DNA of 64,000 nt, taken from a virus. Lineage: Duplodnaviria; Heunggongvirae; Uroviricota; Caudoviricetes. The notes under the pieces are model-generated. The model saw only the letters and a program-made list of their open reading frames with translations, was not told the DNA's origin and did no database searches. The position numbers and the translations under genes are program-made. Each line of letters begins with the position of its first letter. The first letter of the stretch is position 1. Shown in pieces: positions 5,544-40,841 of the stretch. Where the stretch lies: the IMG/VR virus record IMGVR_UViG_3300042892_003817. One strand, 5' to 3'.

Positions 5544-6275
5544 TTATTTTTTTATTACTTTAAATGTTTTTGCGAAGTTCTTACTTCTTATATTTAATAA
5601 ATAGTTACCACTTGGGTAAGCAGTTAGATCTCCATAAGTAGTATTCGGTCCTTTTGCAAAACGTTCTTTCTTTATACTTAGTTGATTTCCTCCCATGTCG
5701 TAAACTGCAATTTCATAATCTCCACTCACTGGTAAAGACATCTCCATTGTTATAATTCCATCTGTAGGTACTGGATATACTTTTCCGTGAATTCCATCTT
5801 CATCTAAAGGAGCTGCATACCTATTATAGTTGATATAACCATCTGTATTAGTTACAGCGATATCCCACCCTTGTACATTTCCAGCTGTCTTTCTTCCTAC
5901 GGTTATAGGAGTTGTAGTCCAGTTAGGATTAAGTACTGTAAATTTTAATATGAATAATTCTGTTGGAGCTGTTACAGTATGCTGTCCATGTGTTCTATCA
6001 TATCCTCCCCATCTTACTTTTCCACTTCCGGTATCCATTGTATAGGTTAACCAGGTTTGTGCTTTTTCAGATAAAATTATTTCTGAGAATTGTAAAATGC
6101 TTTGATCGTAATTTAAAGCAAATTCTAAACTCCCTACTGCATTTCCATTTGTTAGAATAGCTACAGGTAGATCTATGGTATTAGACGGAGACACTGTAAT
6201 CCCAGGCACTTGAAATTGTACCTGGGAATAGAGTGAATTTATTGATAACAGTGCTATGATTATATAGCGTAGCAT
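5544..6275 (-). CDS. Cohesin-domain protein with type IX secretion (Por) C-terminal sorting domain
   Basis: Signal peptide; cohesin-like V..PV...GSLEF.LNYD..IL; CTD KVYPVP...IAVYDMGG...G.YLL.I......KVIKK. Confidence 0.85.
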   Translation of the reverse strand: MLRYIIIALLSINSLYSQVQFQVPGITVSPSNTIDLPVAILTNGNAVGSLEFALNYDQSILQFSEIILSEKAQTWLTYTMDTGSGKVRWGGYDRTHGQHTVTAPTELFILKFTVLNPNWTTTPITVGRKTAGNVQGWDIAVTNTDGYINYNRYAAPLDEDGIHGKVYPVPTDGIITMEMSLPVSGDYEIAVYDMGGNQLSIKKERFAKGPNTTYGDLTAYPSGNYLLNIRSKNFAKTFKVIKK

Positions 6276-6276
6276 A

Positions 6277-7368
6277 TTAGTTGCGTCCTGTTCCGTTTGC
6301 GTCTCCTAATACTAGAAGATAGTAATTGGCTGCTGTTGTATTGTTAATGTTAGCTGATAAGAATGTTGCTACCCCTGGAATTGTTGCTGACTGATCTGTT
6401 GTAGCTGCTGCAATAGTGTTGTATTGAGCTTCTGTAAAGAATAGTAAATCAGGTGTGTTTGGGTAAACTGATAAACCTTGAGCCAATCTAGAGAATACTG
6501 TATATGAATCTGAAATTGTTATTCCATTTGCTTGGTTAGGGTTAGCAGTATAGAATTGAGTTCCAGTTGGAGCTTGTATTCCTGTAGCGATTTGAGCAAT
6601 CATATTTGCATCTGCTGCTGCTAATGCTCCTGGTGCTGTTAATCCTGGTGCTACTTTTACTCTAATTTGCCAGTAGTTTTGATCTAAGTTAGTTGTGAAT
6701 GATGCTACTCCTGTTGTAGTTGCTGTATTAACTGTCATTACATCTACCCAAGTTGTTCCGTTTGAAGATTTTTGTAATATTACTGGAACGTCTGAAGCTG
6801 GGTTGGTTGGATCATTTAAGAATGTAGCAGCATAGTTAAATACTGGTTCTGTGAACGCTCCTCCGTAATTATGTAATCCTAGTGTAGTATCAGTTCCATT
6901 TGCTAGAGTACCGTAAGCCGGGTAAGCTGTCGCTCCTGTAAACGCCATTGCTGTTACTGCACCGTTTGTATAACCTGCTTTAAATGGTAAAGCTACGTTG
7001 AACATTGCTCCGTCAGCAATATTGAAAGCAGCATCTGCTCCTGTGTAAACCCATGTAACTGTTACATTTCCTTCAGTAGCATTTACTAATGTTTGGAAAT
7101 AATTGTTTGCTTCAGTTCCAGTGTAAGTCACTGTAGGAGAAGCAAATACGTTTTTGTCGTACCAAAATCTGTACTGTACTGCTTTGATAGCTGTAGAACC
7201 AGCATTATCATAATAAATTGCAACGTTTGTAGGTGTTGCTCCAAGTGGTGCCAGGTTGTAACTAGCGTCAAATATTAAGTAAGGCTTAGTAGCATCAGGT
7301 GCGATAGTTTGTGCAAATCCTGTTAATGATACTAAAACTAAACTCAATACTAAAAGTAATTTTTTCAT
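6277..7368 (-). CDS. Exported cohesin-like + Ig-like + dockerin-like protein
   Basis: Signal peptide; AVQYRFWYDKNV cohesin-like strand; ANPNQANGITISDSY dockerin-like loop; C-terminal half paralogous to 7447-8445. Confidence 0.7.
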   Translation of the reverse strand: MKKLLLVLSLVLVSLTGFAQTIAPDATKPYLIFDASYNLAPLGATPTNVAIYYDNAGSTAIKAVQYRFWYDKNVFASPTVTYTGTEANNYFQTLVNATEGNVTVTWVYTGADAAFNIADGAMFNVALPFKAGYTNGAVTAMAFTGATAYPAYGTLANGTDTTLGLHNYGGAFTEPVFNYAATFLNDPTNPASDVPVILQKSSNGTTWVDVMTVNTATTTGVASFTTNLDQNYWQIRVKVAPGLTAPGALAAADANMIAQIATGIQAPTGTQFYTANPNQANGITISDSYTVFSRLAQGLSVYPNTPDLLFFTEAQYNTIAAATTDQSATIPGVATFLSANINNTTAANYYLLVLGDANGTGRN

Positions 7369-34974: not shown

Positions 34975-37131
34975 TTATTTTTTTAATTCTTTAATTTCTT
35001 TTTGCAATTCTTTTATAGCTTCAATTAATAAAGGTATAATTTTATCATATTGAACAGCTTTCATTCCACTTTCTCTAGTTTGAACTGCTTCTGGTATTAC
35101 TAGTTCAATTTCTTGAGCAATAACTCCAACATCATGTCCTTTATTACCATGGAATGGTTCATCTTCTATCCAATCAAATTCAACTCCACTAATTTGAGAT
35201 ATTTTTTCTAATGGAGAATCTATTTTTACAATATTATTTTTCCATCTTTTATCTGAAGTAGAATAAGCTACTATATCATTTGAGGCTTCAAATCTACCGG
35301 CAGTATTGGTAGGTGTTATACCTAATCCCATAGCGCCACCAGCAGTAATCCAAACTCTATTTTGATCGTTTGTTCTAAGTATTAACGGAAAGTTCTGATA
35401 GTTACCAAAAAATGAATATTGTCCTGCTACATTCCAGCCAAGTATAGTATCATTTTTAAAAGTAGCTCCCTCAAGCATACGAAATGTTGTATTATATGAT
35501 GTAACTGATGCATTATTATTTACTGAGAATTGCCCTAATGTATTATCAGTATTATTTACAGATACTTTTCCGTTGTCATGAATTGCCATTCTAGCAGTTC
35601 CAGCTGTTGAGAATCCTAATACATCTGCTGATATGTTATACATACCTGTATTGGTATCTCCTGTGAATGTGAATGTTGGCTCTCCTGCATAACCGTTCCC
35701 AGCTCGAACTTTTTCATATACTTCCAACTGAAATAATCTAGATGTACTTGCTGGATCTACATAATATGATGTGGTGCCAGTCTCGTAGAATATTGGTGCA
35801 GTGATTTGAGTTGTTGCTGCTAAAGTAGTTGCGTTTAATGTACCTGTGCTAGATTGAATAGTAACTGCTGCTGCAGAATACGCCTGAGTAGTTGTAGATC
35901 CAGCTCCCCATAAAACTGGGTATGCTGTTCCATCTGTTCTGTTAGGTGAGTATGCAATTACACCTGCAGTAGTAGCTGTACCTGCATTTCCTGTTATATT
36001 AATACCCCAGTTACCTGATGCTCCTGTTCCTGTTAGAGTCGGTGCGTATGAGTTATAGTTAGCACTGTTTAAGTAATATACCCAAGATCCAAAAGAACCT
36101 CCGGTTATATTTCTTGTTGCTAATTTATTTGCGTTATCCTCCCAACCCCATGCTACTTGTGTTCCCCAATAGTTTGACGCATTACTATGTCTCATATTTT
36201 GGTAGAACCACCAAGTATTTCCTGGACTGTTAGTTAAACTAGCTTGATCTCCTTGGTACCTAAAAGTATTTGCTGGTGTATTGTTAAAGTCTGTGTTTAA
36301 GTTTCCTGAGCTTCCTGCACTTAGAGCTGGTGCACTGAATTGTGTTCCAAATAATGTAGTTCCATCAAATGTTAAATTAGATGATCCTGCTGCAACGTTT
36401 GAACTATTTTTGTATACTACTTGGTTTGCTGATCCTGCTGCTGGCCCTGTTGCACCGGTTACCCCTACTGTTCCAGTAGCTCCACTTACACCTATTACCC
36501 CAGTTGCCCCAGATACCCCGACTACTCCTGTTGCTCCACTTACACCTATTACTCCAGTAGCTCCACTTACACCTACTACTCCGGTTGCACCACTTACTCC
36601 TATTACGCCTGTTGCTCCAGATACTCCTATTACGCCTGTTGCTCCAGATACTCCTATTACTCCAGTAGCTCCGCTTACTCCAATTGGTCCGGTTGCTCCT
36701 GTTACACCTATCGGTCCTGTAGCTCCGCTTACTCCGATTACTCCTGTTGCTCCTGTTACTGTTGGTGTTTGTGCAAAAGTCGCATAAGAAGCTGTACCGA
36801 ATAATGAACCTGTTATGAAGGCTCGTGATCCTGATACTCTAATAGCTTCTGCTCCGTACTGTCCTATGTTTACTCTATTATCGGCAAAAGCTTCTATTAC
36901 TGGAAGTCCTGCTATAGTATTTACTGAGAATAAAGAATCAGATAAGTCGTCAGATACTGTAAATAATCTTCCGTTAGTTCCGTTTACTGCCAATAAGTCT
37001 GTTCTTCCGGTAGAACCTGAACCTTGTAAGATTAATGATCCTGAGGCATCTTGAGTTAATGTTTCTTTAAAGTTCAAAGAACTTGTAAAGGACATTACAC
37101 TGGATGCTGGTGTTATTCTAATATCTGCCAT
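34975..37131 (-). CDS. Collagen-like tail fibre with C-terminal peptidase S74 intramolecular chaperone
   Basis: About 104-aa Gly-X-Y block; SDKRWKNNI...G.IAQE....PEAV...[13 protein letters not shown]. Confidence 0.9.
36442..36753 (-). repeat. Collagen-like tandem repeat, mostly 27-bp units (GATGVIGVS)
   Basis: Directly visible imperfect tandem repeats. Confidence 0.95.
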
Positions 37132-37132
37132 A

Positions 37133-37474
37133 CTATTGTGTTAATTCTGCTAATGGTTTTGACCACTCCTCTGTTGATAATATAGTAAGAATTTCTTCAT
37201 GAGTGTACTCTGTATCTCCTTCTTGGTAGATACTCGGTCTTCCGTACACCCCTGCAAGAGTTGTATGACTTGTTTCTTCCTGTGTTTCAGGATTAATACC
37301 GGTATGTACTATATCCTCTAGTATTTCATTTATTTCATACTTAATAAAAGTCTTAGTACCATCTACCGATAGTCTTAAACTCTCTGGTGATGATTCTAAT
37401 ATCTGATTGAAATCAATCGATCCTGTTGCTGTGGTTGGTATTATTAACCATCTTCTATTCTCAAATGTACTCAT
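37133..37474 (-). CDS. Hypothetical tail-region protein
   Basis: 113-aa ORF (..SL..S.DGTKT..KY...Y.HEEIL..L...EW); no homing-endonuclease motif. Confidence 0.75.
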
Positions 37475-37504: not shown

Positions 37505-37775
37505 GGGTTTCCCCTAAGTGTTTATCCTATGCAACGAGCACACACTTTTGTTAACTATGTATTTCTACACAGGTCGGACTATATCATCATGCTTTATAAG
37601 CATGTTGGGCGCTCTAGCTGGTTATTAAGGAAACTTTATTCCTCCAGTAGTCTCTGAACCTTCTTGAGATGTATCTCAAGCTTGGCTGCTGATTTTCCAA
37701 TCTTTAACATTGTTACACTTCGGTAGTTAAAGCTCTAAGGACGTTCCAGCAATTCACCCAATTTAAACAGGACAT
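37505..37775 (-). ncRNA. Free-standing group I intron-type ribozyme core (IA-like, with P7.1)
   Basis: P AAUUGCUGGAA (37744-37754), Q AAUCAGCAGC (37685-37694), R GUUCAGAGACUA (37648-37659), S UGAUAUAGUCC (37576-37586); P3, P4, P6, P7, P7.1, P8, P9 all pair. Confidence 0.9.
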
Positions 37776-37798
37776 ATATAAATAGCACTAAAAATTAT

Positions 37799-39268
37799 CT
37801 AAGACACATAAGGTGCTACTATTGTTTTATAAAACTCTTCTCCGTATGTTGATGTTCCTCCATTTGGAAATTCAAAACGAAGTGGACCACCTCTTTTACC
37901 TTTATATACAGTAACTGATGTAAACCATTTTCCATTCTTATAAGAAGTCTGTACTCCATATTCAGTAAGCCTAGTAGGTGTTCCAATATCGTCTCTAGCT
38001 ACTTCTATGTAATTGTCTGGGGATTGAAAACTTGCATCTGGTTTTTGGTATATAGTATAGGCTGGTGTTGTGGTAGCCATGTTTTCGCCACTTATATCTC
38101 CTTCTGTTCCGTCTGCTTCCCACCTTCTATTATACCTAGTAGCTCTATTACTTACTGCAAAGTAATACGTATCATACTCTATTCCAAATCTTGCATTATA
38201 GAAATCAAAATTCTGTTTTACTTCTGCTGCCGTTAGTGCTCTGTTGTATATTTTTGCTACTGGTATTTCTCCTCCTTGGAAATATGACCAACTCCTACCT
38301 ACTTGTATGTTAGTAGTTCCTATAAAAGATGCAATATTACTTGATCCTTGAAGTACTCCGTTTTTATAAATAAAAGCAGTTGTTCCATCATATACCCACA
38401 GTACGTGTACCATTTCGTTTAACGCAACTGATCCTGCAGCGTAATCAGCACTATAATGAGCGAAGTATATGTTCCCATTCCTAAGACCATTATGCATTCC
38501 TTGACGATATGCAGTTTGATCAGTTCCAAAAACCATATTATCCCCACTTATTGTATTAGTTACTTTAAATACGGCTTCCATTGTATATGGAGCATCATAA
38601 ATACCTAAAGCAGTAGCTGTCTTAGTAGTATTTATGTAATCATCGGTACCATCAAATACCATTTGAGCATTTGAATTAAAAGATACATTTGATAAATCTA
38701 ATGTACTGTTTCCTACTAATGGTAAAAGTCCTTGTGTTGCTGAACGAGTACCTGCTACGAATGGTGTTGTGTAAGATTTTAATTCTACTTGAGGATCATA
38801 TAGAGTAACAGCTCCACCAGTATCGAAATTTATATCTAAGAAGTAGTAAGGTGCAGCGTAAGAACCTCTACTACTATACCCTGCTAACCTCCCTGATGTT
38901 GCTGTGGAATAGTTGAGGCCTGTAATACCTACATCACACCAATCAATTGATAACCCTCCTATTAGGTTTTCAAAATACACACTACTGTTATATGTCGCTC
39001 CATCTATTAAATCAGGTTGGTTTGGATACAACCTAACGGTGCTCACTCCTGTACCATTATTTACAAATCTAAATTTACCATTTCCTAAATCTGTTTTGGT
39101 ACATCTTCCGTAGATATCTCCTCCGCCGTTTATAAGGTTTGTAGCTCCAGCGCTGTATAGTAGGTTTACTGTAGGTTGTCCTATATACGAATTTCTAGTA
39201 TCTCCTGTATCGTAAGCAAACACCGATCCTGATGTGACTGTTTTTCCGTATCCTTGTGCTACTGCCAT
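37799..39268 (-). CDS. LamG/concanavalin-A-like lectin domain tail protein (paralogue 2)
   Basis: FDGTDDYI...YTMEAVFK...H...VYDG....IY.NG...IYNRALT..EV.QNF. Confidence 0.85.
   Translation of the reverse strand: MAVAQGYGKTVTSGSVFAYDTGDTRNSYIGQPTVNLLYSAGATNLINGGGDIYGRCTKTDLGNGKFRFVNNGTGVSTVRLYPNQPDLIDGATYNSSVYFENLIGGLSIDWCDVGITGLNYSTATSGRLAGYSSRGSYAAPYYFLDINFDTGGAVTLYDPQVELKSYTTPFVAGTRSATQGLLPLVGNSTLDLSNVSFNSNAQMVFDGTDDYINTTKTATALGIYDAPYTMEAVFKVTNTISGDNMVFGTDQTAYRQGMHNGLRNGNIYFAHYSADYAAGSVALNEMVHVLWVYDGTTAFIYKNGVLQGSSNIASFIGTTNIQVGRSWSYFQGGEIPVAKIYNRALTAAEVKQNFDFYNARFGIEYDTYYFAVSNRATRYNRRWEADGTEGDISGENMATTTPAYTIYQKPDASFQSPDNYIEVARDDIGTPTRLTEYGVQTSYKNGKWFTSVTVYKGKRGGPLRFEFPNGGTSTYGEEFYKTIVAPYVS
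38646..38691. repeat. 46-bp exact direct repeat, copy A (copy B 39778-39823)
   Basis: gtaccatcaaataccatttgagcatttgaattaaaagatacatttg. Confidence 0.9.
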
Positions 39269-39269
39269 A

Positions 39270-40841
39270 TTAACTTAAATTAAAACGTGTTTTGTATTGT
39301 TGGTAGTTTTGTTTTATTTCTTGTGCTGTTAATGCTCTATTGTAAATTTTTGCTACCGGTATTTCTCCGTTTATGTTTGCTGCTGCTCCTTGGTCCTGTG
39401 CTCCTATTATAAGACTTGGATCTGAGTCTGATGTCCAGGTTCCTGCTGTGACAGTATCTGTGCTATCTAAAACTCCATTTATGTAGTATGTTAGTACTGT
39501 GTTGTTTAAGGTAGCTACTATGTGATGGTACCCTGGTGTTGTGCCAATATCTCCGTTACTGTAGTAGTCGTAATAGCTTCCATTAATTATGAAAGCTAAA
39601 TGTATTTTCGTAGTAGGGTATCTTCCGAACCACCATACAGTCCCTATACTGTTACTCCACCTAGTTATTACTGCTTCTACTCCTGAAGTATCGTTGAATT
39701 TTACAACTGCTTCCCATGTTACATTTCGTGCAGATAGGTCAAATGGTTGTATTGCTCCACAATCTACATAATCATTCGTACCATCAAATACCATTTGAGC
39801 ATTTGAATTAAAAGATACATTTGTTAAATCTATTGTACTATTTCCTATTACTGGAAGAAGTCCTTGTGTTGCTGACCGAGTACCTGCTATAAACTGGGTA
39901 GCATGGTTTTTTTGCTCTACTTGTATATTAGCTAAATCAAGATCATAAACTGCTCCACCATCTGGGAACCAGTATGATATCAACGTATTATGGGTTGGTG
40001 TAAAAGTTATAGTATATGCTCTCCACTCTCCCACCGCACCTAAAGCACCTCCTCCGTAAAATACAGTAGCTCCTCCTGGTCCTCCGTAGTTGTAGTGTTG
40101 GAATGAAACATACTTTCCTACTGCTGCGGCATTTACAGCTCGAAGCCAAAACGTAGTTGTAACGGATTGTCCTATTGTTACAGAAGCGTCGGATCCATAC
40201 GCCATTCCATCTACTCCGTCAACTCTAGGTACATGTAACCTAATACAGTCTGTTAATTTCCCTGTATATGGATTCCTATACCCATTTGGTATAATCTCTT
40301 TTACAAGCCCTGAGTTAGGTTGGTGAGGGTTTCCAAACCATTTTGTTGGAAAGCTTGAAGCATTAATTGATATTCTTTGATCTAATGCTATACTATCGTG
40401 TACTTTAAAAGCTCCTGTTGCAAGGCTTATATATCCTTGAGACCCATCTTGAGATCCGTTATAAGCATGTAAAGTAAATTGAGTAGATGATATAGCTTTT
40501 ACAAAATACTGAGTACCTGATGTAACTCCTCCTCCTGTTGTTTCAGGATTTATTACATCAAATGTTCTTAATCCATGAGCAGTTGAAGTTGTAACGATAT
40601 TGCTTGAAATTCCTGATACAGTTGCTAAATTCCAATAAACACCACATCCGTTATTCCCACAGTACTGATTTGTATTGTAAGTCCCCCAACTATTTCCAAA
40701 AGTAGGTAGAGCGTTTAATCCTGGTGATGGTATAAGGTTTGCTGTAGGTTCTCCTATGTAAGAATTACTCACATCACCTGTATCGTAAGCGAATACTAAA
40801 TTATTTTCTCCTAATGTATTTGGTCCTCCTGCTACTGGCAT
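39270..40841 (-). CDS. LamG/concanavalin-A-like lectin domain tail protein (paralogue 1)
   Basis: FDGTNDYV...TWEAVVK...HHIVAT.....YYING...IYNRALT.QEI.QNY. Confidence 0.85.
   Translation of the reverse strand: MPVAGGPNTLGENNLVFAYDTGDVSNSYIGEPTANLIPSPGLNALPTFGNSWGTYNTNQYCGNNGCGVYWNLATVSGISSNIVTTSTAHGLRTFDVINPETTGGGVTSGTQYFVKAISSTQFTLHAYNGSQDGSQGYISLATGAFKVHDSIALDQRISINASSFPTKWFGNPHQPNSGLVKEIIPNGYRNPYTGKLTDCIRLHVPRVDGVDGMAYGSDASVTIGQSVTTTFWLRAVNAAAVGKYVSFQHYNYGGPGGATVFYGGGALGAVGEWRAYTITFTPTHNTLISYWFPDGGAVYDLDLANIQVEQKNHATQFIAGTRSATQGLLPVIGNSTIDLTNVSFNSNAQMVFDGTNDYVDCGAIQPFDLSARNVTWEAVVKFNDTSGVEAVITRWSNSIGTVWWFGRYPTTKIHLAFIINGSYYDYYSNGDIGTTPGYHHIVATLNNTVLTYYINGVLDSTDTVTAGTWTSDSDPSLIIGAQDQGAAANINGEIPVAKIYNRALTAQEIKQNYQQYKTRFNLS
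39778..39823. repeat. 46-bp exact direct repeat, copy B
   Basis: Identical to 38646-38691. Confidence 0.9.

Follow-up and report, generated by a model that had tools for sequence, protein, structure and literature searches.

Guide-first group I ribozymes of phages, predicted to pair with and possibly cleave their own 3′ domain beside tail-fibre genes

The window, that is, the whole 64,000-nt stretch of caudoviricete virus DNA analysed here, contains a tail-fibre module at 34975–37131 and 37799–40841. Within this region, a 324-nt spacer between the stop codon of a 489-aa ORF and the ATG of a 113-aa ORF houses a group I ribozyme, which starts 24 nt past the stop codon (Table 1). The 489-aa product matches a PHROG family of the type 'virion structural protein' and ends in FYKTIVAPYVS. 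The adjacent ORFs of 489 and 523 aa have PHROG 8510/24074 segments in common, and the Peptidase_S74 domain of the 718-aa fibre is an intramolecular chaperone. The ORFs on both sides of the ribozyme are complete without splicing. In phages without the ribozyme, the 113-aa gene sits 12 nt past a different gene. An identical 113-aa protein is found in 55 blocks of public assemblies, suggesting that the phage is common in the environment. A microdiversity check showed the ribozyme region to be identical in all ten near-identical environmental copies of the window phage; the contig of one environmental copy terminates within P9, not at the cleavage site predicted below.

The ribozyme is matched by Rfam model RF00028 at 37803–37555 on the minus strand (89.8 bits, E 1.2e-21, gathering score 50), which is the sole Rfam match at the gathering score both in the window and in the 126-kb phage record. 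The core contains the P7.1/P7.2 insertion between P7 and the 3′ strand of P3, a hallmark of subgroup IA2, and this insertion displays compensatory changes in relatives (GGAAU/UUUCC, GAGGU/CCCUC and GGGAA/UUCCC). The P2 hairpin that subgroup IA2 has between P1 and P3 is absent from the window element, where guide to P3 is only 8 nt. J9/9.1, the P9.1 stem and the GGGGAAACCC hairpin all lie outside the span of the Rfam model, and the P9.1 stem is also subject to compensatory changes in relatives (AAGUGA/UCACUU, AAGUGC/GCACU and AAAUGC/GCAUUU). P7, J8/7 and J6/7 are invariant among relatives, and P9 retains a GNRA loop. J8/7 (GAUGAU or GAUGAG) and the 3′ strand of P7 (AUAGUCC) are kept in 57 of 57 relatives that were picked by their 5′ half alone, and the invariance of these strands implies selection for chemistry. 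Judged by its sequence, the window element is a complete group I ribozyme with a phage IA2-type core, predicted to be catalytically intact.

Table 1. Features of the ribozyme locus in the window.
Feature	Position	Strand	Basis or remark
Upstream ORF, 489 aa, Laminin_G_3 domain, virion structural protein	37799..39268	-	stop TAG 37801-37799
TATTTATA intergenic motif, strand-specific, abuts guide	37777..37784	-	over-representation in window
Examples of other TATTTATA copies	8457-8450, 16529-16522, 27510-27503, 29120-29113, 54227-54220, 63879-63872	-	
Putative internal guide sequence 5′-UGUCCUGU-3′	37767..37774	-	homology to P1 guide strand of canonical relatives
Catalytic core	37576..37761	-	Rfam alignment; core invariants in relatives
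P3	37761-37755 with 37611-37605	-	
P4-P6	between P3 and P7	-	
P7	AGACUA 37653-37648 with UAGUCC 37581-37576	-	
P7.1/P7.2 insert, typical of phage IA2 introns	37647-37618	-	CUGG-AGGAA..UUCCU-..CCAG
P8	37603-37589	-	
J8/7 GAUGAUA	37588-37582	-	
P9 hairpin, GAAA tetraloop	37555..37572	-	Rfam alignment, relatives
J9/9.1 UUAACAA	37548..37554	-	conserved motif UAAYA
P9.1 domain, AAGUGU 37547-37542 with ACACUU 37521-37516	37516..37547	-	compensatory changes
Small hairpin within P9.1, UGC-UCGUU-GCA	37540-37530	-	
Putative substrate strand of cis P1 helix 5′-AUAGGAUA-3′	37523..37530	-	pairing, covariation
GGGGAAACCC hairpin, P9.2-like, GAAA loop	37505..37514	-	only in window, L014a, L242
Next cistron, 113 aa, without family assignment	37133..37474	-	ATG at 37474
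Tail fibre gene, 718 aa, Collagen and Peptidase_S74 domains	37131-34975	-	directly after 113-aa cistron

The putative guide UGUCCUGU and its target AUAGGAUA form eight antiparallel pairs, including the G.U wobbles G37773.U37524 and G37768.U37529. The target is placed within a 20-nt loop (37541–37522) closed by the P9.1 stem. The original prediction, made from the letters of the window, had described this pairing, the loop and the hairpin that follows, all of which proved exact on the minus strand; its permuted layout, with the guide as the first functional element and the target downstream of the core, likewise holds. The length of the helix had to be trimmed, as only the central 6 bp (37774–37769 with 37528–37523) are conserved across the family and the outer 2 bp are specific to the lineage of the window. 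The conserved part of the guide is N-GUCC-N, with G37773 as the wobble G, and that of the target is N′-GGAU-N′, with U37524 as the wobble U; the predicted scissile bond is U37524|A37523.

By itself, the guide/target match in the window sequence is no better than chance. An equally good duplex within 233 nt downstream is reached by 16.5% of shuffled guides, and in the window alone a rival 8-bp match, AACAGGAU at 37427–37420, outscores the internal target. This rival lies on the minus strand inside the 113-aa ORF, also pairs with a G.U, and is present in one relative (L014); the energy of its complement is at chance level and its conservation is accounted for by coding. Duplex energies calculated for the guide against downstream, upstream and shuffled sequence did not discriminate between them in most members of the family, and the MFE fold of a single sequence is unable to display a pseudoknot.

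To collect relatives, a first scan was keyed on the P7.1/P7.2 region, which gathered ∼100 group I ribozymes. This set splits cleanly into canonical ribozymes, with P1 and P2 hairpins 5′ of P3, and ribozymes without foldable structure there; the region 5′ of P3 folds at −8 to −18 kcal/mol in the canonical relatives, compared to more than −5 kcal/mol for the 46 nt upstream in the window. A second pattern drew on three elements, the guide core, P3 and the P7 5′ strand, so that nothing about the 3′ partner entered the search; it matched 74 metagenome and 28 viral stretches, giving 67 non-redundant members after removal of duplicates, and had no match in 185,579 bacterial and archaeal genomes. All 67 members have N-GUCC-N beside P3, with the guide G constant at 14 nt ahead of the GGG of P3, and N′-GGAU-N′ on the 3′ side of P9.1, where GGAU immediately precedes the P9.1 3′ strand (67/67). 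The family thus comprises at least 67 distinct members, as well as at least two sister subfamilies, and is widespread in freshwater and marine phages. It includes a cultured representative, Flavobacterium phage vB_FspM_immuto, in which the same element follows a stop codon and the helix (GGUCCU/AGGAUC) differs from that of the window by an exchange of U-A for G-C at one flank.

Covariation of the two strands was evaluated by choosing the partner GGAU according to its proximity to the P9.1 stem, without reference to the guide, which yielded 38 distinct strand combinations from the 67 members. A few members whose P9.1 has large inserts received the wrong partner when it was picked by the P9.1 3′ strand alone, and these errors were left in the statistics. 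The −1:+1 pair, flanking the wobble G on its 5′ side, is formed in 32 of the 38 combinations and the N5:N5′ pair, which follows GUCC, in 33, where ∼16 are expected on shuffling of partners (P<1e-4 each); pairing at the next two positions past the 6-bp helix is not significant in these combinations. Pairs were also counted in a MAFFT alignment of 25 members with short P9.1. There, 89% of the helix cells are paired, compared to 30–42% when the partner is slid by 1–3 columns, and the observed covariation was reached by none of 500 shuffles. The G.U is present in 25/25 sequences, while the flanking pairs are distributed as UA15/UG5/CG3/GC2 (−1:+1) and UA13/AU8/GC3/CG1 (N5:N5′). The two flanking pairs therefore covary via four pair types, and the G.U is never replaced by G-C.

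Across the family, the base opposite the guide G is U in 67/67 members and never C, while the neighbouring pairs vary freely; the wobble U was absent from every search pattern used to gather the relatives. In a sister subfamily with N-GCCC/GGGU-N′, 10 of 11 −1:+1 pairs form, using three pair types, and the G.U is always kept; here the partner is located 2–15 nt ahead of the next ATG. Covariation of guide and target in homologues, which the original prediction had named as a check, is evident in the 25-sequence alignment. As judged by comparison across relatives, which settles the question, the pairing is a real helix. Since the flanks of the guide covary with the internal site, it is this site, rather than a target in trans, that appears to be the selected partner.

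The identity of the helix can be derived from canonical relatives. Two of these, L029 (∼1370–2370) and L034 (∼6029–7010), lack P2 and interrupt a ribonucleotide reductase gene (..GQSGRR|GALM..HPD..) as group I introns. In introns of this type the 5′ exon ends in ..IGQSGRR (AAGACGU), ∼805 nt upstream, and a LAGLIDADG endonuclease ORF occupies the P1 loop and runs in frame into the ribozyme core. GCGUCUU beside P3 pairs perfectly with the exon end AAGACGU, with a U.G at the splice site and one +1 pair, while AAUGCGC, located 5′ of GCGUCUU, forms P10 with the first letters of exon 2 (G|GGCGCAUU..). With the true 5′ exon found, P1 is therefore assigned to the strand beside P3, and P10 to the one located 5′ of that strand. 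An assignment of the helix as P10, based on the pairing of the 5′ segment with exon 2 in the ribonucleotide reductase relatives, was considered and is ruled out by this exon. The segment beside P3 in the window is homologous to the canonical P1 strand, in agreement with its original designation as a guide sequence, and the 5′-splice-site geometry proposed at the target is reflected in the conserved U.G wobble downstream of the core.

A conventional P1 could not be located upstream. P1 and P2 hairpins, like a matching upstream exon, are missing from all 67 members, and no conserved hairpin occurs between the stop codon and the guide in the relatives, where the spacer is A/U-rich and often without G. 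N′GGAU is present within 200 nt upstream in only 14 of 62 members, always at least 108 nt off, and exact upstream 6-mers within 3 kb number 28, compared to 28.7 expected. The earlier failure to find an upstream exon partner in the window is thus matched by upstream complementarity at chance frequency only. The P1 proposed by Rfam, whose match extends to 37803, is a weak and unconserved pseudo-P1. On account of its position, its homology, the invariant wobble and the lack of any other P1, the guide/target helix is, so far as sequence comparison can identify it, a P1 built from a strand after the core instead of before. The layout of a guide-first, self-targeting ribozyme is strongly supported by these comparisons, while cleavage and its purpose are plausible.

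In the mechanism that we propose, the cis P1 helix would dock into the active site, and guanosine or GTP bound in the intact P7 site would attack the bond after the wobble U (U37524|A37523). The reaction would halt after this one step, because there is no conserved omega-G or P10 for a second. The upstream product would be an RNA ending in the folded ribozyme (...GGAU-3′OH). The downstream product would start with the added G and, in the window, carry the small ORF and the tail-fibre cistrons. The ribozyme would then be a cis-acting processing module for a polycistronic message, not a splicing element. We give an even chance to such single-step, guanosine-dependent self-cleavage after U37524, parting the upstream RNA from the tail-fibre message. 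The next ATG is 20–35 nt beyond the predicted site in ∼40 of 62 members (49 nt in the window, at the 113-aa ORF), and the gene most often found downstream (MSI[IV]LR..) has matches among tail fibre and tail collar families; this spacing and the nature of the downstream genes would fit a cut that frees a tail-fibre message and gives it a new 5′ end.

Several observations weigh against cleavage. An intrinsic terminator-like hairpin and U-run directly follow P9.1 in five relatives (immuto, L002 3640–3680; L087; L289; L291; L292), which would release no message, and downstream release, as originally envisaged, is thus not a general trait. The downstream RNA would stay held by the 6-bp P9.1 stem after the cut, and a conserved wobble can act as a tertiary-contact site that is left uncut. 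[quoted passage not shown] 2007, cited in PMC8637638). The GGGGAAACCC hairpin, which the original prediction had protecting the new 5′ end, is restricted to the window and two close relatives, so such protection is not shared by the family. The more general proposal, that these elements are rearranged group I ribozymes forming a natural, phage-confined class in which splicing has been abandoned, direct the ancestral first step (guanosine or GTP attack on P1) at a strand of their own 3′ domain and cut late polycistronic or stand-alone transcripts beside tail-fibre genes, is tentative, with a likelihood slightly short of even.

Alternatively, the P1-like helix could remain uncut, as a pseudo-substrate or a structural clamp that replaces P1–P2 and locks the fold; the RNA would then be a stable structured 3′ UTR, a 5′ leader, or a stand-alone RNA that does something else, perhaps in trans. 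The shortness of the helix and the stable P9.1 stem at its flank are consistent with a clamp, and so is the TATTTATA motif that abuts the guide in the window. This motif is found in 23 copies in the window, compared to 11.3 expected, a number reached by 0 of 100 shuffles; 20 of the 23 copies are on the coding strand, mostly 2–31 nt ahead of ORF starts. A phage promoter is one possible function, an initiation-region motif another. Related motifs precede the ribozyme in many relatives. Were TATTTATA to act as a promoter, transcription could in part start at or within the guide, and the helix cannot form in those transcripts that start inside it. The five terminator-bearing relatives also have a promoter-like motif directly ahead of the guide. 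The motif before and the terminator after the ribozyme suggest that these may be self-contained, stand-alone RNA genes, which favours an uncut or stand-alone RNA. On the other hand, a structural helix should tolerate G-C in place of the wobble, which is observed in none of the 67 members nor in the GCCC subfamily, and the catalytic J8/7 and P7 strands are invariant. An activity in trans is disfavoured by guide flanks that track the internal site, not a fixed external target. Overall, a helix that is never cut seems unlikely, yet it is a serious contender.

The arrangement could also represent a circularly permuted intron that undergoes back-splicing, with a G between P9 and the target serving as omega-G. 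G attack at U37524 would be followed by attack of the freed 3′-OH at the omega-G site, and the resulting circle would be ∼19–30 nt here and at most ∼90 nt in members with a large P9.1. The order of core, linker and 5′-splice-site-like U.G is that expected of a permuted intron, in which the 5′-splice-site element is 3′ of the core as it is here, and the circles of 15–86 nt that natural permuted group II RNAs yield (PMC8637638) count in favour of this reading. Gs do precede the target in the window, and a UG in the P9.1 5′ strand is nearly invariant. However, this UG is paired with CA in P9.1, and no alignment position ahead of the target is a conserved unpaired G, nor is there a conserved G after it; the candidate omega-G positions that had been listed ahead of the target are not conserved either. 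A P10 complement 5′ of the guide is not conserved, the region being A/U-rich and not complementary, and the strand between the candidate G and the U is mostly engaged in P1. We regard back-splicing as improbable.

An ordinary cis-splicing intron would use either the Rfam P1 (GAUAAU 37799–37794 with GCUAUU 37786–37781) and a 3′ splice site after G37504, or a far-upstream 5′ splice site with the upstream gene in the P1 loop. The Rfam model aligns from 37803, and the canonical relatives do have an 800-nt ORF in the P1 loop. However, the Rfam P1 has 4 non-canonical pairs out of 9, with an A.C beside the U.G, and is absent in relatives, while the guide matches upstream sequence only at chance frequency and the upstream ORFs encode structural proteins, not endonucleases. 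Some members, e.g. L121, have no G whatever between the target and the next ATG, making a downstream 3′ splice site impossible and excluding two-step splicing in these members. In all 62 members with enough upstream sequence, the ribozyme lies 5–87 nt (median 24) after an ORF stop; the window element is likewise intergenic and interrupts no gene, which leaves none for it to restore as a group I intron would, and the flanking ORFs are complete unspliced. Cis-splicing is thus very improbable. Chance complementarity in a decaying intron remnant, to which the single-sequence shuffle (p ∼0.17) and the better match in the next ORF might have pointed, is refuted by the comparative data, namely the covariation, the positional conservation in 67/67 members and the intact core, and its likelihood is negligible.

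Group I ribozymes are textbook self-splicing introns and, to our knowledge, non-splicing natural derivatives are almost unknown, the eukaryotic lariat-capping ribozyme (GIR1) aside. The window element shares with canonical IA2 phage introns (T4 td/nrdB/nrdD, Twort and S-PM2 psbA, as well as L029 and L034) the P3–P9 core, P7.1/P7.2, the G-binding P7, the guide position beside P3, and the U.G wobble with one +1 pair; a GNRA loop on P9 is common to both where P9 is present, the P2-less ribonucleotide reductase introns being without it. The two differ in substrate. The canonical introns act on the upstream exon end, use omega-G and P10, and restore a gene, whereas in the window element the substrate follows the core, omega-G and P10 are not conserved, and the location is intergenic.

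In function, GIR1 is the closest analogue. It too is derived from a group I ribozyme, has no upstream P1, pairs its 5′ strand with a strand 3′ of the core and, by a single cut, gives a downstream mRNA a new 5′ end. GIR1 acts by 2′-OH branching next to omega-G, has a remodelled core with a P15 pseudoknot and a P2-P2.1-P10 junction, and resides in twin-ribozyme introns of eukaryotic nuclear rDNA. In contrast, the window element has a canonical core and its helix keeps the P1 wobble; the GIR1 family model had no match in the window at the Rfam gathering score. Lee et al. 2010 and Chen et al. 2011 are said to have described a c-di-GMP-controlled group I ribozyme in an untranslated region of Clostridioides difficile, in which GTP reportedly attacks an alternative site near the 3′ end to give a processed, not spliced, RNA. 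Unlike the window element, the Clostridioides difficile ribozyme retains an upstream P1 and can splice, the alternative attack being its off state.

In topology, the closest analogues are engineered guide-first ribozymes, permuted group II ribozymes and the coral ND5-717 intron. Engineered ribozymes (Tetrahymena L-21 endonucleases, trans-splicing ribozymes and permuted intron-exon constructs) likewise have the guide at the 5′ edge of the RNA and pair with a U.G, but they are laboratory products that act in trans or circularise an inserted exon, whereas the window element is natural, targets its own 3′ domain and has no second splice site. Bacterial circularly permuted group II ribozymes (PMC8637638) and the back-spliced ND5-717 group I intron of coral mitochondria (Chi et al. 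2019, as cited in PMC8637638) resemble it in having a splice site on the unexpected side of the core. Both differ in having two splice sites and in making circles, while the window family conserves only a 5′-splice-site-like element; back-splicing of ND5-717 reportedly restores the order of coding exons. Natural topological rearrangements are on record among group II RNAs and in a single mitochondrial group I intron. We found no published natural group I ribozyme of bacteria or phages that is permuted, intergenic, P1-less or self-targeting in the open-access literature.

If these elements are indeed a class of rearranged ribozymes that cut at their own 3′ domain, they would be the first family of natural group I ribozymes in bacteria or phages that is guide-first and self-targeting, paralleling the lariat-capping ribozyme and permuted group II ribozymes; the G added to the 5′ end of the downstream message would be non-templated and might be triphosphorylated. 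If these ribozymes cleave, they would extend the group I active site to a new role in phage gene expression, within host-range (tail-fibre) gene clusters, and set a natural precedent for guide-first ribozyme designs. They would also call for caution in annotation, as a group I match is not always an intron. In immuto, a 'hypothetical protein' (immuto26A_226; L002 3466–3600, equivalent to MW353175.1 145086–145220) is called inside the ribozyme core, from P4 to the 3′ strand of P3, and is probably a spurious gene call; the ribozyme copy of this phage was missed by Rfam at the gathering score.

The proteins encoded just upstream of the ribozyme share a C-terminal motif, [FY]Y-x-x-[IL][IV]-x-P-[YFW]-[LV]-[PS]. 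It is found in the window (37835–37802) and in L242, L014, L245, L030, L268, L260 and L292, and also in the upstream ORFs of L002, L087, L069, L011, L256, L291 and L232. The possibility that the ribozyme travels with a homologous upstream gene was rejected, as a BLASTP comparison of the 489-aa protein with immuto gp225 revealed no significant overall similarity; the ribozyme seems to be tied to a short conserved C-terminal module of the upstream protein.

One phage contig, represented by L014, L271 and L287 (identical or nearly so), has two family ribozymes ∼3.5 kb apart. Each has a guide and target of its own, UGUCCU/AGGAUA in one and CGUCCAGA/UCUGGAUG in the other. On the minus strand of L023, the 6-bp wobble helix is replaced by 16 bp of long-range pairing that joins the 5′ edge to the 3′ domain, in which the 5′ segment UUCUUUCUAAUUACGAG pairs with a site 119 nt past P7 (shuffle p 0.005).
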